Shown in pieces: positions 2,988 to 53,233 of a stretch of 64,000 bases of DNA. The stretch comes from Bacteroidota bacterium. Lineage in GTDB: Bacteria; Bacteroidota; Bacteroidia; CAIKAF01. The stretch lies in the NCBI GenBank assembly GCA_016866335.1, contig VGMT01000004.1:15294-79293 (forward strand). Direction: 5' to 3'. How positions within the stretch are numbered: the stretch's first letter is position 1; every line of letters begins with the position of its first letter. The notes below the pieces were generated by a model, which did not search any database, was not told where the DNA came from, and saw only the letters and a program-made list of their open reading frames with translations. The position numbers were made by a program, and so were the translations under genes.

Positions 2988-5900
2988 ATGATTAAAAAAT
3001 TACTTCCGCTGCTATTGCTTCTGCTTTCCTTTCAAGGAAGCCTTATTGCCCAGGGTTCAACCGGCGAATTGAAGGGTGTTGTTAAAGACGATAAGGGGGA
3101 ACCGTTGCCCTTTGCCAACGTAGTTTTAATGAAAGATGCGGTTCAGGTGCGTGGTGCCTCTACCGATATGAACGGGACCTATTGGATGAAGGCTGTGCCT
3201 GCTGGCAAGTACCAATTGGTTTTTTCTGCCATTGGCTTCAATAAGTTGACCAAGGGGATTACAGTAGAATCGGGCGGCAACATCACTTTCGTCGATGCTC
3301 AGTTGCGTTCGGAAACCATCGTAGTAGAGGGCTATGATTTTGTGGAAGAGACGGTTCCTTTGATAAAGCGCGATGAAACCATGGTTCGTACAACCATTCG
3401 TCGAGAAGATATCTTAAAATTGCCCGGTCGTAGTCCATTGTCTGCTGTTACCACAGTAGGTGGCGTGTTTAGCCGAGACGGTGAAATTGGAAACATTCGT
3501 GGAGCCCGTTCTGGAGCTACTATTTTTATTGATGGTGTTAAAATTCGGGGCGGTTCTGCCAATCTGCCGCAACAGGCGGTTGAAGAAACTCAGGTTATCT
3601 TGGGAGGTGTGCCAGCAGCGTTCGGCGACGCAACCGGGGGTATCATTTTGTTGACAACGCGCGGAATATCCAACAAGTGGTTCGGAACCGTTGAGGGCCG
3701 CACCTCTCAATTTTTAGATAACTATCAGAACCATTTGTTTAGTGGCGCGGTGGGTGGTCCCCTTATTAAAAAGAAAAACAGGGAAGGAGTAAAAGTTCCG
3801 GTTGTTGGTTTTCTTGGCACGGTTGAGGGAGGCTACAGCGGAGATCCCTCGCCAGTTGCGGGAAAGATTTGGCGTGTAAAACCCAATGTGCTGCAAAACA
3901 TTCAACAAAACCCCATTCGTTTATCAGAAACGGGAACGGGAGCACTTTTAAATGCTGAGTTTTTGCGTCAGCAAGATTTTGAAACCATTCGGGCTCGACA
4001 AAATGTGGCCAGTTCTTCATTGAATATTCAAGGTAAAATTGACGTGTTGGCCTCGGAACGCACCATAATTACTGCGGGCGGGTTCGTGAATTTGTCGCAG
4101 GGTCGTGGTGGTCGTGACGGAGGAACCTACACTTCTTCCTTGTTTAACTGGGAAAACAATGGAGAATCAACCGATTTCACATGGAATGCTTGGGGGCGTA
4201 TAACCCATCGTTTTGCAAATCCTAGCGACTCATCCAACAAGGGTTTACGCAACGCTCTTGTATCGTTGCAGGTTGATTACCTGCGTGGGGCTGGAACATC
4301 TCAAGATGTTTTACACAAGGATAATTTTTTCAATTATGGGTACGTGGGTCGATTTGAGACCTTTCGGGCTCCTGTTTATCCAACCTATGGTTTAGATCCT
4401 AAAACCAACATGTCGGGGTATCTTTTTGGAGGTTTTGTTGATACCATGGTTACTTATCAGCCGGGTTCATTGAATCCTACATCTTCTGCGATTACAAGTC
4501 AGTACTACACCTTATTTGACAATCCGTTTGGAGTTTACAATAATTTGCCCAACATACAGCAAGGCGGGGCATTGCTAAATGGACAGTCGCCACGAAGCAT
4601 TTACAACCTGTGGTCGCATCCGGGCACTCAATTCAACGGGTACAGTATTTCCGACAACAACCAGTTTAGGGTAGTTGGTCAAGGTTCGGCTACCATTGGA
4701 GACCATGATTTTCAATTGGGATTTGAGTTTGAGCAACGGAACGATAATTTTTACAGTCTAGCTCCCGTTGGTTTGTGGCGGTTGGGCTGGCAGTTGGCCA
4801 ATCAACACCTTGGTGTAATTGATACTGCCGCTCCTGCTCCTGTGTACGATCCAGTAACAGGGGTTTTTAAAGATACCATCAACTATCCTGCATTGTACCG
4901 AGAAAACGAGCAACGCACAGCAGAAACCGGATACAAATTCGGGGTTGGTCAGGCCTTTTTTGATTGGAATTTGCGTCAGCAACTTGGCTTAAACGCCGAT
5001 GGTCTTGAAACCATTGATGTAGATGAGTTGGATCCTTCTACCTTCCGCCTCAATATGTTTAGCGCCGATGAATTGTTAAACCAAGGAAACAATTTGGTTA
5101 CCTATTGGGGATATGATGTTTATGGCAACAGGACGACTCAAAATGTAACTTTTGATGACTTCTTTACGGCCAAAGACCAATATGGCAACTTTACCCGCCC
5201 AATTGGGTCGTTCCAGCCCATTTATTTGGCTGGTTACCTTTCAGACAAGTTTTCGTTTAAAGACATTATTTTCAACGTAGGTGTTCGGGTAGACCGTTTT
5301 GATGCGAACCAGTCGGTTCTTGCCGACCGCTTTTCATTGTACCGTACCCGAAGCGCAGCTGAAGTAACAGAATTGAATGGCAACAGCATTTCGCACCCTG
5401 GAAACATAGGAAGCGATTATGTGGTTTATGTGAACGACCGTCAAAATCCCACTCAAATTTTGGGTTATAGAAACCAAAATGTTTGGTACAATTCCAACGG
5501 AGAGGTAATCAACGACCCTGCATTACTTCGTACCACTTCCGGTCGGGTTCAACCCTATTTGGTCGATGCTGCTGACGATATTCAAAGTGCAGGTTTTACT
5601 CCATCTGGAGCATTCCGCGACTACGATCCGCAGATCAACATCATGCCTCGGGTTTCTTTTAGCTTCCCAATTTCAGATAAAGTAGGTTTTACCGCTTATT
5701 ATGACGTGTTGACTCAGCGTCCTTCTGGAGCTGTTCGCTTGAATCCGCTTGATTATTTCTTTTGGGATAATGCTTCGTACAACTCAGGTGGAACCTTTTT
5801 CAACAATCCGAACCTTCGTCCTGAGCGTACTACCGATTTCTCATTGGGTTTCCGTCAGTTGTTGACCCCTTCAAGTGCACTGAAAATTTCAGCGTTTTAC

Positions 5901-22900: not shown

Positions 22901-23398
22901 ATGAAACCTTTGCATAAACGCCCACTGGACCTTGTTCTGTGGGTTTTTTATTTGGTAAACTTCCTGGTGGTTGTTTACATGATTGATTTAGAACAACTTA
23001 CGGTGAAACAGCCAGGGCTTTCCGAATATCCTCTTTGGCCTCCGCCCTTTATGATTGACCTAATTCATTGGTACGGCTACAATTTCGACCCTCTGTTGAT
23101 CGCTAGGCCGCCCTGGTGGCAAGCAACCATTTGGATTGATGTGTTGTTTTTTGGACCCTTTTACGCCTTTGCACTCTACGCTTTTTGGAAAGGGAAAAAC
23201 TGGATTCGATTCGGGGCTATTGTTTGGGCCTCTATGCTGATAACCAACGTTACCATTATACTTTTCGAAGAATTTTTTGGGCCGCACGCCTCGCCCCAAT
23301 TAGCCCGGGTTTTGCTCGCCAATGCAGCTTGGTTTATTTTCCCAGTCCTTACATTGTATCGGGCTTGGCGCTCTCCAGTAATGTTCAATGACAATTAG
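22901..23398 (+). CDS. EXPERA-domain membrane protein (TMEM97 / sigma-2 receptor / EBP-like, DUF2781)
   Basis: 165 aa, 4 predicted TM segments. WYGYNFDPLLIARPPWWQATIWIDVLFFGPFYAFALYAFWKGKNWIRFGAIVW..ILFEEFF parallels my recollection of human TMEM97 ([50 protein letters not shown]). Confidence 0.6.
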   Translation: MKPLHKRPLDLVLWVFYLVNFLVVVYMIDLEQLTVKQPGLSEYPLWPPPFMIDLIHWYGYNFDPLLIARPPWWQATIWIDVLFFGPFYAFALYAFWKGKNWIRFGAIVWASMLITNVTIILFEEFFGPHASPQLARVLLANAAWFIFPVLTLYRAWRSPVMFNDN

Positions 23399-23432: not shown

Positions 23433-23573
23433 GGGGCGGCAGCCGGGCTTTCACAGGTAGTCCTCAGCAAAAGGGACTGGGGCAGCGGGCTTGCGTGGGC
23501 TCCTAAAGTCGCCTCCGCGCCACGCGCCCCAGACCCTTTCGCTTTGCGGGCTACCTTGTTCAATCCCTGCCGC
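23433..23573 (+). repeat. GC-rich structured intergenic repeat, family A, copy A1 (the most diverged copy)
   Basis: GGGGCGGCAGCCGGGCTTTC..GCGTGGGCTCCTAAAGTCGCCTCCGC..CAATCCCTGCCGC aligns over its full length with 25971-26115 and with the reverse complements of 27323-27467 and 53089-53233. Confidence 0.9.
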
Positions 23574-23634
23574 AAATGCCTCTATGTTAAAAACGGATTA
23601 AAAAAGAATTTTCAAAAAAAATGCGTTTTGCTCT

Positions 23635-23665
23635 TGACACTGAATTTTAACCTCGGTATCTTCGT
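23635..23665 (+). promoter_or_regulatory. Promoter of the unassigned RNA, copy 1
   Basis: TTGACA (23635-23640), with the TTG followed by 20 nt and then TATCTTCG (23658-23665; Bacteroidota -7 consensus TAnnTTTG). The spacing is identical to copy 2. Confidence 0.6.
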
Positions 23666-23670
23666 AGTTC

Positions 23671-23952
23671 ACTGGTGAAACGTTCTTTTTGCTTCGTCAC
23701 GTATCGGGGTGGCGAGGAACACTTCGGGTAACTTCATGATGTGAAGTTTGCTCTTTTGGGGAGTCTCAGAAATGCCTTCCTATTTTTTTAGGAAGGCGGG
23801 AATCTCGGGTATGAGACTGGGTTGGTGCGGCAGATCAGCCCTTTACATTTAAGAGAGTAAGGCAGTTTCAATTGGATTGCTCTCGTTTTAAGGTTTAGTA
23901 AAAACGACATCCAACCAGCAATTCGGTTCGGATGTAAACGTGTTTCTTTTCA
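23671..23952 (+). ncRNA. Unassigned structured RNA, copy 1 (~280 nt), family not recognised
   Basis: No ORF. Shares ordered sequence blocks and covarying hairpins with the minus-strand locus at 42.7-43.0 kb. Ends in hairpin ACATCCAACC-agcaattc-GGTTcGGATGT (23908-23936) followed by a U-rich stretch. Confidence 0.6.
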
Positions 23953-24079
23953 ACCCTATCCCAAGGGCCCTTTCCCACAACAGCCCCTCCAACCCCTCAA
24001 AGGTCCCAGCCAAAATTCAATAAAAATTACCCGCCCCCTTTTCACTATGCCGCATATTCAATACCTTTCGCCACTGCAT

Positions 24080-25970: not shown

Positions 25971-26115
25971 GGGCGGCAGCCGGGCTTTCTGGGCTACTCC
26001 GCGGTTGCCGAAAGGCTGGCCCAGCGGGTTTACGGGGGCTCCTAAAGTCGCCTCCGCACCTCGCGGGCCAGGCTTCGGCACCCTTGCGGGCTAGCCTCAT
26101 CAATCCCTGCCGCGG
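25971..26115 (+). repeat. GC-rich structured intergenic repeat, family A, copy A2
   Basis: GGGCGGCAGCCGGGCTTTCTGGGCTACTCCGCGGTTGCCGAAAGGCTGGCCCAGCGGGTTTACGGGGGCTCCTAAAGTCGCCTCCGCACCTCGCGGGCCAGGCTTCGGCACCCTTGCGGGCTAGCCTCATCAATCCCTGCCGCGG. Begins 6 nt after the RidA stop. Confidence 0.95.
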
Positions 26116-27322: not shown

Positions 27323-27467
27323 CCGCGGCAGGGATTGATGAGGCTACCCCGCAAGGGTGCCGAGGACTGGCCCGCTAGGTGCGGAGGCGACCTTAGGAGC
27401 CCCCGCAAACCAGCTGGGCCAGCCTTTCGGCAACCGCGGAGTAGCCCAGAAAGCCCGGCTGCCGCCC
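27323..27467 (-). repeat. GC-rich structured intergenic repeat, family A, copy A3 (inverted orientation)
   Basis: The reverse complement aligns with A2 almost base for base. Confidence 0.95.
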
Positions 27468-42100: not shown

Positions 42101-42436
42101 TTAAATTCCTTCTGCCCCTGTTGGGGGAATCAGGTCGCCCTTCTCGCTGCCCGAAATAAACTGATTTAAATAGTTTTTCATCCAATCGGCAATAAGCAGT
42201 GTGCGAATTTTGCCGGATTCAATAAAGGCATTCAAGTCCGTTTCTTCGGAAAATGTTATTTGATTGCCAACGTAAATTCTATGCCTGTCAATTGGAGCCT
42301 GGATGTTTTTTAGTTCTGTGGCTATTTGCTGACTGGTATCATAGTTGGCGGTAAAAAAAAGGGTGTTTCCTTCCACCCGCATATTAAAGTAATCGGCCAA
42401 CTGTTCTACGCTTGGATTAAATGTTTTTTTTGACAT
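42101..42436 (-). CDS. Hypothetical protein (111 aa), first ORF downstream of RNA copy 2
   Basis: Clean ORF 31 nt upstream of the sulfatase start on the same strand. No family recognised. Confidence 0.5.
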   Translation of the reverse strand: MSKKTFNPSVEQLADYFNMRVEGNTLFFTANYDTSQQIATELKNIQAPIDRHRIYVGNQITFSEETDLNAFIESGKIRTLLIADWMKNYLNQFISGSEKGDLIPPTGAEGI

Positions 42437-42639
42437 AAAACGAAAATTTAGATGAATTTAAGGGTTTGCAATTGGAGGATAGAGGCTCAAGAATCAGGCC
42501 AAAATTGAATTGGAAAATCATTCGTAGAATGGCTGGCTGGTGTTGTTCCATTGAGGGGTGAAATTCGCGAAACGCCAAACGCAAGAGTTCCCTTGAAGCG
42601 TTAACCTTTTAGGAAACGAACCAAAAACCAATACACCTA

Positions 42640-43006
42640 CCACCCAACCTAAAAGGCCGGTGGTCCTTCCTCACACAAATCCTCGTTGTCCCTCTAAAAA
42701 CTTGGTTTCATTAATGTCGTTTGATGCGCTTACTTCCTTCTGTTCCCGCATCAGTCTCTTTTAATTCAACCCTACATGTTAAGGGTGACCTGCCACTTCA
42801 CCCGTCTCATACCCAAAATTCCCGCCTTCTACTTCAATAAAGTTGCCTCTATCAATTTAGAAAGCATTTCTGAGACCCCCTGTGAACCATTGGTCCGCTT
42901 TTCAGCTTTCCTTTAATCCACAATCTCACTTCACTCCTAAAAGAACCCTAAGTGTTCTTCGCCACCCCAAATACGTGACGAAGCATCAAAACGTTTCACT
43001 AGTGAA
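42640..43006 (-). ncRNA. Unassigned structured RNA, copy 2 (conserved core 42714-43006; 3' boundary uncertain)
   Basis: The reverse complement carries the same ordered blocks as copy 1: TTCACTnGTGAAACGTT..GCTTCGTCACGTAT.GGGGTGGCGA.GAACACTT.GGGT; GGGG.GTCTCAGAAATGC.TTC; GAAGGCGGGAAT.T.GGGTATGAGAC.GG; AAACGACAT. Expanded variable hairpins lie between the blocks. Confidence 0.55.
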
Positions 43007-43009
43007 TTT

Positions 43010-43040
43010 CAAAATTACGAACTGGGGTTTCAAGTGTCAA
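43010..43040 (-). promoter_or_regulatory. Promoter of the unassigned RNA, copy 2
   Basis: On the minus strand: TTGACA (43040-43035), with the TTG followed by 20 nt and then TAATTTTG (43017-43010), a perfect TAnnTTTG. The geometry is the same as copy 1. Confidence 0.65.
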
Positions 43041-43221
43041 GTAAAATTCATGTTTTTTAACACATTTTTTACCCAAAAACAATTTCTACAGCTGCCTACA
43101 TTGCAATAACCCCTCTGGTTTCTCATTCAATTACCGACCTTATCTTCCCCAACCCTTACGGCTATGCCCATCCTGTAAATTTGCGAAGACAAAGTGCTAT
43201 CTTTGAGGCCAAATTGAAGCC

Positions 43222-52881: not shown

Positions 52882-53036
52882 TTTTTTTGGGGGCCATTTC
52901 CGGCTTTACGTTCTAGGGCGCAGCCATAAACGGCACTGGGCTGGGCGCTGCGTGGGCTCCCAAGGTCGCCTCCGCCCGCCTGCCCAGTTTGGCCGTTTGT
53001 GGCCACGCCCTATCACTGCTATCCGGGGCCCGGGCC
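52882..53036 (+). repeat. GC-rich intergenic repeat, family B, copy B2 (B-type ends with an A-type apex hairpin)
   Basis: The ends match B1. The centre contains GCGTGGGCTCCCAAGGTCGCCTCCGC (compare family A), flanked by pairing arms AAACGGCACTGGGC / GCCCAGTTTGGCCGTTT. Confidence 0.85.
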
Positions 53037-53088: not shown

Positions 53089-53233
53089 CCGCGGCAGGGA
53101 TTGAAGAGGCTTGCCCGCAAGGGAGCCGAAGACTGGCCCGCTAGGTGCGGAGGCGACTTTAGGAGCCCCCGCAAACCAGCTGGGCCAGCCTTTCGGCAAC
53201 CGCGGACTAGCCCTGAAAGCCCGCAGGCGCCCC
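53089..53233 (-). repeat. GC-rich structured intergenic repeat, family A, copy A4 (inverted orientation)
   Basis: The reverse complement aligns with A2/A3 over its full length. Lies about 50 nt after B2. Confidence 0.93.

Follow-up and report, generated by a model that had tools for sequence, protein, structure and literature searches.

Several structured bacterial noncoding RNAs (ncRNAs) that comparative genomics brought to light and whose function was unknown at discovery, such as raiA, OLE, GOLLD, ROOL and the IMES RNAs, were first seen in lake or marine data (IMES in marine metatranscriptomes), and oligomerisation has been shown for GOLLD, ROOL and OLE (PMC12286853). They have many helices, invariant junctions and variable hairpins capped by tetraloops, carry promoters of their own, lack coding potential and are abundant in environmental sequence. 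Here, we analysed a 64,000-nt stretch of DNA from a Bacteroidota bacterium (contig VGMT01000004.1 of assembly GCA_016866335.1; this whole stretch is called the window, and all positions refer to it), in which the spacer between glyA and a sulfatase operon (42437-43040) probably contains, on its minus strand, a separate structured ncRNA gene that resembles these orphan RNAs in the above properties. The present RNA differs from them in that it occurs in freshwater Bacteroidota and not in Firmicutes or phages, and in that it has two to four diverged paralogs per genome. It is also smaller, with 340-420 nt, than OLE, GOLLD and ROOL, and no covariance model of the orphan RNAs matches it; the unit as a whole, ~340-470 nt by profile match and paralog homology, also falls short of the ~580-800 nt of the large ornate RNAs and has no Rfam match. 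An association with tRNA clusters or prophages was not seen here, apart from one tRNA gene at a homologous locus (L009).

The decoys CsrB/CsrC and RsmX/Y/Z, Qrr and the 6S RNA paralogs are multi-copy trans-acting RNAs, and the present RNA is like them in having several paralogs with strong-looking promoters of their own at unrelated intergenic sites, and in the short G-rich motifs repeated in its loops and junctions (here YGGGK, with six occurrences in the core). However, it has no Csr-type repeats of GGA hairpins, is not rod-like and gave no 6S match in Rfam. Riboswitches offer another comparison, together with EutX and Rli55, which are RNAs controlled by a B12 riboswitch and set a precedent for an attenuator-controlled ncRNA. 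As in these, a pocket-like conserved internal loop is followed in some members by a hairpin with a U-run, but there is no conserved class of downstream gene, two loci have convergent neighbours, no model matched and no anti-terminator was found. The guide RNAs of dCas12f/sigma-E systems and the omega-RNAs of TnpB likewise combine, as Bacteroidetes ncRNAs, a conserved scaffold with a 3' part that varies, and some are multi-copy (PMC13472631). The dCas12f guides are 85-105 nt long and lie directly downstream of dcas12f (PMC13472631), whereas the present RNA is three to four times longer and has no cas12f, tnpB or rpoE adjacent; such an identity, which would call for a scaffold of ~85-250 nt with a 3' guide, encoded beside dcas12f or tnpB, was ruled out by size and context, and neither dcas12f nor tnpB flanks any copy.

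The whole window gave no match at the gathering thresholds of Rfam 15 (4227 families). When the copy in the glyA-sulfatase spacer (copy 2), its paralog elsewhere in the window (copy 1) and short sub-stretches were searched at E up to 10, only noise was returned (12-18 bits, against thresholds of 34-86), and six homologous loci gave tRNAs and unrelated weak matches only. A scan of the window by ARAGORN gave neither tRNA nor tmRNA genes. Relative to Rfam 15, the RNA family looks new.

Promoter, fold and 3' end of the probable RNA gene

We consider it likely that this RNA is a gene of its own and not the leader of the operon behind it. The minus-strand region from 43040 to ~42620 would then be a structured ncRNA gene of ~340-420 nt, one of two paralogs in the window, transcribed from a promoter of the TAATTTTG type. 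A preliminary description of the locus had placed the promoter (43040-43010), the conserved core, an ACCACC..GGTGGT hairpin and the order of the downstream genes at or within a few bases of where we find them. The -33/-35 element TTGACA (43040-43035, minus strand) is followed, 20 nt after TTG, by the -7 box TAATTTTG (43017-43010, minus strand), which fits the Bacteroidetes sigma-A consensus TAnnTTTG perfectly, and the tract upstream is A-rich. As the -7 box of flavobacteria spans -12 to -5 (PMC9723704), the RNA is predicted to start at ~43005. A generic sigma-70 scan found the promoter of copy 1 (TTGACA-17-TATCTT, 23634-23662) and missed that of copy 2, because its -10 rule does not fit Bacteroidetes.

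By BLAST and alignment, the core of copy 2 is homologous to positions 23666-23945 of the plus strand (nhmmer E-values of 2.5e-74 and 1.9e-72); copy 1 as a whole, with its promoter, core, helix P8 and a GGGCCCTTTCCC motif, spans 23634-23976 on that strand, and the nhmmer profile detected these two copies only in the 64 kb. Thirteen further copies, from about five lineages, were collected from the metagenome-assembled genomes (MAGs) ErkenSummer (L001), LaPlata (L002, L004, L008, L009) and Caspian (L003, L005, L007), from metagenome contigs (L010-L012, L014) and through the open reading frame (ORF) behind copy 2 (L021). Five types can be told apart, A (with copy 1), B (with copy 2 and L021), C, D and E. 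In every full-length copy, an equally spaced TTGAC/A is followed after 17-20 nt by a TAnnTT(T/C)G-type box (TAATTTTG, TATCTTCG, TATCTTTG or TATTTTTG), homologs having TATCTT(C/T)G or TATTTTTG at the position of the -7 box. The promoter is thus kept along with the RNA, and among the paralogs of the LaPlata MAG an identity of 89-92% extends from ~-45 to ~+425 relative to the start, promoter included, and ends right behind the GGGCCCTTTCCC motif. These bounds define a self-contained unit that includes its promoter. Orthologous copies in two MAGs are 94.6% identical.

The core folds far more stably than shuffled sequence (z-scores: copy 2, -4.2; copy 1, -3.4). From 11 full-length sequences, RNAalifold recovered P1, P2, P3, P4, Pj/P5 and P6. 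The structured core (~43005-42783; this and all helices below are on the minus strand) opens with P1, a 5' hairpin UUCA-CUAG-UGAA (43006-42995) that is paired in 97.7% of the alignment cells and of which variants (UUCAUCGAUGAA) occur on loose contig ends in metatranscriptomes. The B2 block (42984-42950) consists of the P2 hairpin, a 9-bp stem CUUCGUCAC/GUGGCGAAG with the loop GUAUUUGGG, and AACACUU; written out, its 45-nt hairpin is GCUUCGUCAC-GUAUUGGG-GUGGCGAAG-AACACUU. Near-invariant in all five types, with 100% of cells paired, B2 is the most conserved part of the RNA. The hairpin P3 (ACUUAG...GUGAAGU, 42954-42928) is retained on loose ends of divergent metatranscriptome and metagenome contigs. 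P4 (42922-42881) is missing in copy 1 (type A), and where it occurs, in types B, B', C, D and E, its sequences are unrelated; the terminal loop is GAAA in types B and D. Between 42876 and 42804 lie Pj (GUCUCA/UGAGAC), which is invariant and closes the conserved internal loop GAAAU / GGGAAUUUUGGGUA, and within it the long two-part hairpin P5, whose distal part varies among types and is capped by GCAA or UUCG; the G-rich internal loop reads GGGAAUYUYGGGUA. P6 (GGGUGA-AGUGGCAG-GUCACCC, 42803-42783) ends the conserved core and is terminator-like in some types. It is followed by the variable P7 region (42782-42667), which depends on the type in length and sequence and here includes the hairpin GAUGCG..CGCAUC (42752-42723), and by P8 (42666-42639), which is the ACCACC..GGUGGU hairpin (ACCACCGGCC..GGUUGGGUGGU; 42664-42639 for ACCACC..GGTGGT itself). 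Its partners in the alignment are ACAUCCAGCC..GGUUCGGAUGU in types A, C and D and GACCUCCGGCC..GGUUAGGAGGU, also given as ACCUCCGGCC..GGUUAGGAGGU, in L021. As judged from this alignment, the hairpin is the conserved 3' helix of the RNA and no attenuator of the operon.

With a 50-pair structure of our own specification, P8 included, 95.7% of cells pair, against 38-48% with slid partners. Five pairs are altered on both sides, two in P5, one in P6 (U-G to G-C in 4 of 13 sequences) and two in P8, although the sample is small (13 sequences, about five lineages) and most core pairs never vary, so that the statistical weight of these changes is modest. The stronger argument for structure lies in the variable arms: P4, distal P5 and P7 have unrelated sequences and lengths by type, yet always form hairpins at fixed positions, often under GAAA, GCAA or UUCG caps. 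Larger variable hairpins had been noted in copy 2, and rightly so, as P4 is 42 nt long against absent in copy 1, P5 42 against 24 nt, and the P7 region is longer; that the RNA is a scaffold tolerating peripheral expansion is well supported by arms that differ wholly and still fold. Blocks of 20-35 nt are invariant between lineages. The core is rich in G+U (C/G 0.42-0.75), and this strand asymmetry is consistent with the strand assignment. P5 hairpins measure 24, 40, 42, 43 and 44 nt, differences that are not multiples of three, and an internal ATG is lost in type E, which rules out a conserved reading frame; the secondary structure, with its covariation, is conserved.

Transcription would most likely end between P6 and the U-run behind P8, at ~42780-42620. 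That U-run, GGUUUUUGG (42629-42621, minus strand), lies ~10 nt past P8 and may mark the zone of termination. A U-run stands behind the P8 region in types A, B, C and E, but D and B' lack it and carry one behind P6 instead: UUUUUUAU comes next to P6 in type D (CAGCCUUUUUUAU), and UUUUUC does so in L021 (CACCCUUUUUC). P6 of copy 1 was flagged as terminator-like. The RNA may end at P6, after P8 or after a palindrome in the tail, and two forms are possible; convergent neighbours force its end at two loci, while elsewhere terminator-like sites follow P6 or P8 according to type. The tail motif GGGCCCTTTCCC with its palindrome AAGGGCCCTT is found at 23963-23976 and, in L001-L009, ~30-60 nt past P8; it does not vary among types A, C and D and stands at the extreme end of the paralog unit, where it is a candidate terminator, dimerisation or protein site. 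Both the tail motif CCCUUUCCC and the GGGAAU..GGG loop are invariant where present, so a putative mutual pairing shows no informative changes. The C/G ratio of the tail is 1.8-4.1 in types A, C, D and E and ~1.0-1.3 in copy 2 and L021; a C-rich tail serving as a Rho-loading site is an idea only, and one that the ratio in copy 2 does not support.

From the U-run to the ORF, the spacer 42620-42505 (minus strand) has no detectable stable structure; it contains a weak palindrome, CAAGGGAACUCUUG (42595-42582), and its last ~40 nt are homologous to spacers without the RNA (alignment with L015, L018 and L021). As a whole, 42437-42720 is no more stable than shuffled sequence (z +0.89). The ~275 nt behind the core had been described as further noncoding sequence of a long leader. 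Noncoding they are, but on comparison of the spacers they are not a uniform leader: P8 comes first, then the spacer, then a promoter-like block of the ORF.

Gene context, relatives without the RNA and transcripts

Two readings of the duplicated element had been offered beforehand, a cis-acting leader or riboswitch-like sensor shared by two otherwise unrelated operons, or a trans-acting RNA duplicated next to them. When tabulated across nine distinct loci, the downstream genes proved unrelated: an aldehyde dehydrogenase in type A, an ORF of 111 codons (ORF111) and the sulfatase in type B, a secreted protein at L007 and a panB-like gene in type E. In types C (L003, L004) and D (L005, L009), each locus being represented in two MAGs, the next gene is convergent; these neighbours are small lipoprotein genes, conserved between the two MAGs, that end at the edge of the RNA unit. 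A riboswitch would be expected in front of co-directional genes of one pathway, and this arrangement was not found. The catabolic pair reported behind copy 1 is indeed an aldehyde dehydrogenase (Pfam Aldedh; labelled 'ALDH8-like' beforehand) and a RidA-family gene.

Relatives that lack the RNA were informative on the operon itself. In two related lineages, L015/L017 and L018-L020, glyA, the ORF and the operon are retained around a spacer of 320-330 bp, and a GC-rich repeat occupies the place of the RNA in this glyA-ORF spacer. In L021 the RNA is present, flanked by the contig end and the ORF. A block of 18 nt, TTTTGGCCTGATTCTTGA (42504-42487, minus strand), is identical in all five orthologous spacers, which come from about four lineages, with or without the RNA; it lies ~50 nt before the ATG of the ORF and is unique in the window. 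Its spacing, GG-N10-G, resembles a sigma-54 -24/-12 element with a non-consensus -12, and sigma-54 promoters occur in flavobacteria. We infer that this block may serve the ORF111 operon as its own promoter or operator, so that the operon would be driven independently of the RNA. By sequence comparison, the operon probably does not depend on the promoter of the RNA, as relatives without the RNA keep both the operon and the block. On the other side of the spacer, glyA and pgk are the divergent genes upstream of the RNA. The two candidate -7 boxes of glyA, TAAATTTG (43176-43183) and TATCTTTG (43198-43205, plus strand), lie exactly where the preliminary description had put them, and only TATCTTTG, which is divergent from the RNA promoter, is conserved in relatives, including those without the RNA.

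The transcript evidence consists of assembled Logan contigs, not reads, and carries no strand information; such contigs break where conserved meets variable sequence, their ends are not taken as 3' ends, and they show presence, not absence. In metatranscriptome X28, copy 2 is represented by a core contig alone (42801-42993). X30 contains a core contig (42860-42972) and separate ORF contigs ending at 42462, with nothing at 42463-42860. The core of copy 2 is therefore transcribed, at modest depth, and the pattern in the two runs is weak evidence for separate transcripts of the RNA and the ORF. Copy 1 was not seen in the contigs of true metatranscriptomes. Since there is no common gene context, some spacers lack the RNA, the 18-nt block is conserved and the contigs are separate, the RNA is probably not the leader of the operon. 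The shared cis-acting leader is thus not borne out, the conserved downstream context expected of it being absent, and a trans-acting RNA duplicated beside unrelated genes fits the data better.

Weighing the explanations

As an independent gene product, the RNA would work in trans by serving a conserved cellular partner as scaffold or decoy, with the near-invariant B2 hairpin and the G-rich internal loop as the probable contacts. It would have landed, or been retained, in the glyA-ORF spacer by duplication or rearrangement, and would not have been recruited as a sensor of the operon. A target search by short-motif complementarity within the window gave chance-level matches only. Several observations weigh against an independent gene. 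At 4-5 of the 9 loci, the RNA and the next gene point the same way, and in type A the stretch from the RNA to the aldehyde dehydrogenase shows no obvious promoter of its own. A canonical intrinsic terminator is lacking in copy 2, as UUAACAU follows P6 and the U-run behind P8 is ~10 nt from the stem, and a terminator scan of 42437-43010 found none. A low-depth contig from X25, a run of uncertain type ('METAGENOMIC RNA-Seq'), spans 42415-42580 and reflects either read-through or DNA. Gaps in contig coverage do not prove termination, because contigs break at joints of conserved and variable sequence, and the depth of the RNA in metatranscriptomes is modest (~7-20), similar to that of the ORF mRNA. 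Some read-through from the RNA into the ORF is possible. The trans-acting role and the partner are what we infer purely, and any specific trans mechanism is advanced with much less confidence than the independent gene.

Were the RNA a cis-acting leader, a transcript starting at ~43005 would run through 570 nt into ORF111, the sulfatase and FGE, and the core would sense a ligand or factor and set read-through at P6 or P8. The co-direction of RNA and operon in the window and in L021 is consistent with this, as are the position of P6 after the core, where L021 and type D add a U-run in the manner of aptamer-plus-terminator designs, the likeness of the highly conserved internal loop to a binding pocket, and the X25 contig across 42415-42580. 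Nevertheless, we find the leader quite unlikely in view of the unrelated downstream genes, the two loci with convergent neighbours, the relatives that run the operon without the RNA and keep the promoter-like block, the unstructured stretch 42437-42720, the lack of an X30 contig bridging core and ORF, and the lack of a match to any riboswitch family. Conceivably, P6 could instead act as an attenuator within the ncRNA, with P1-P5 as the sensor that sets termination there, giving a short form (~220-260 nt) or a long, trans-acting form with P7, P8 and the tail. Such a design would suit a P6 that in type D and L021, and only there, carries a U-run and so has the form of a canonical terminator, while P8 and GGGCCCUUUCCC downstream are yet conserved with covariation; it would also suit the paralog homology that reaches +425 and the U-run after P8 in the types that lack one after P6. 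Even so, we hold attenuation to be unlikely, as type E has no U-run after P6, no alternative anti-terminator pairing was identified, and the proposed isoforms and the ligand or factor are hypothetical.

A mobile or selfish cassette of promoter plus RNA, spreading between intergenic sites, would account for the two to four copies per genome, for paralogs that are 89-92% identical including the promoter, and for copies that often adjoin a GC-rich repeat of ~145 bp. An insertion polymorphism is also present, as the RNA occurs in the window and L021 and is absent from the spacer in L015/L017 and L018-L020. However, there are no convincing terminal inverted repeats or target duplications around the unit, the only inverted pair being of 14 nt at 86%, with one arm partly in sequence common to the relatives without the RNA. 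No transposase, reverse transcriptase or integrase lies nearby, and phage, plasmid and viral collections gave no match (pattern scans of IMG/VR for viruses, BLAST for phages and plasmids). Four metagenomes revealed no deletion joint or within-species polymorphism, and orthologous copies are stable between MAGs at 94.6% identity, which makes a mobile cassette very unlikely. A small-protein gene, suggested by ORFs called in some copies from the ATG of GAAATGCC, or a chance similarity is hardly credible given hairpin length differences that are not multiples of three, the loss of that ATG in type E, the compensatory pairs and nhmmer E-values of 1e-44 to 1e-105.

The operon, neighbouring repeats and spread of the family

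ORF111 (42436-42101; like the genes that follow it, on the minus strand) has no Pfam match, and its homologs, which form only four clusters, are 63-94% identical and likewise lack Pfam domains. It heads a cluster of acyl-CoA dehydrogenase (ACAD) and AnmK genes in all homolog clusters, with or without sulfatase and FGE, and is transcribed, with contigs in metatranscriptome run X30. Its AlphaFold2 model is a confident alpha/beta fold (predicted local distance difference test score, pLDDT, 82.6), for which a fold search returned no PDB match below E 0.1. ORF111 is a real but orphan gene. Inside its coding sequence, a terminator-like hairpin with T8 occurs at 42361-42378 on the minus strand (GGGTGGAAGGAAACACCC TTTTTTTT), which probably reflects the codons of the conserved ...VEGNTLFF... 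and is no signal. Next come, all assigned by Pfam, the Cys-type sulfatase (42069-40474; CAPSR motif at residue 104), FGE (40517-39729), the ACAD (39778-38525) and AnmK (38550-37459). This order is the same in L018-L020, and in L015-L017 ORF111 stands directly before ACAD and AnmK. The window, L018-L020 and L021 have sulfatase and FGE, which L015-L017 lack; as they come and go among relatives, the sulfatase module is an insertion or deletion in an otherwise conserved cluster.

The GC-rich intergenic repeat of ~145 bp occurs in both orientations in the window (23434-23573, 25971-26113, 27325-27467, 53091-53233 and, in part, 52928-52975), in L001, L003, L004, L007, L008 and L010, and in the glyA-ORF spacers of L015/L017/L018-L020, and it often adjoins copies of the RNA. 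Three sub-threshold matches to Acido-Lenti-1 (RF01687; 25-32 bits against a threshold of 37) lie at 1349-1680 of L001. Upstream of copy 1, at 22901-23398, is a gene for a membrane protein of the EBP/EXPERA family (PF05241) with one homolog at 91% identity and the next at no more than 71%. Its closest named relatives belong to MAGs of Cyclobacteriaceae and Chitinophagaceae, and for this reason the label 'Flavobacteriales' of the related MAGs may be loose. Synteny through this neighbour of 165 aa led only to relatives at 64-68% identity in a different context, with no RNA. At L009, a tRNA gene (3841-3922; 56 bits) lies ~290 nt upstream of the type-D RNA on the opposite strand and is highly covered in RNA runs.

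With two to four copies per genome, the family as sampled was found in a narrow set of Bacteroidota MAGs from fresh water, which carry the label Flavobacteriales or Bacteroidetes. Scanning 185,579 species genomes with the B3/B4 patterns yielded 8 true loci in 3 MAGs and one chance match, and a B4 scan of metagenomes yielded 4 true loci and one chance match. The B2 block would, in retrospect, have made a better probe. Over B2 (~42918-42986), the depth in four DNA metagenomes from lakes (X1, X16, X17 and X18) is 15-25x that of its flanks, with values of 89 versus 5.9, 119 versus 6.8, 141 versus 5.7 and 292 versus 25, while over the neighbouring B3/B4 blocks it is barely raised. Loose contig ends run into many differing flanks that retain P1-like and P3-like sequences. 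Because of this excess depth and the diversity of flanks, the B2 hairpin must be common to far more genomes or copies than were fetched, and the family is probably much wider than our set. The excess points to many unsampled relatives with only the B2 hairpin and P3 in common. It is conceivable, although we regard it as doubtful, that B2 and P3 define a widespread, abundant and undescribed class of freshwater-bacterial RNA, whose core would be a sensor or a protein-binding module and in some members of which termination at P6 would give short and long trans-acting isoforms, as in a riboswitch-like controlled ncRNA or a new ribonucleoprotein scaffold.

Read as above, the seemingly 'empty' spacer of 600 bp is probably a gene, and the sulfatase operon should not be annotated as riboswitch-controlled. 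Its invariant blocks of 20-35 nt, compensatory helices and variable arms capped by tetraloops are the marks of a functional RNA. Current knowledge of small RNAs covers Bacteroidota poorly, and a new RNA that is present in several copies, has a strong-looking promoter and belongs to abundant lake bacteria would be a good candidate for a new RNA-protein partnership or sensor.

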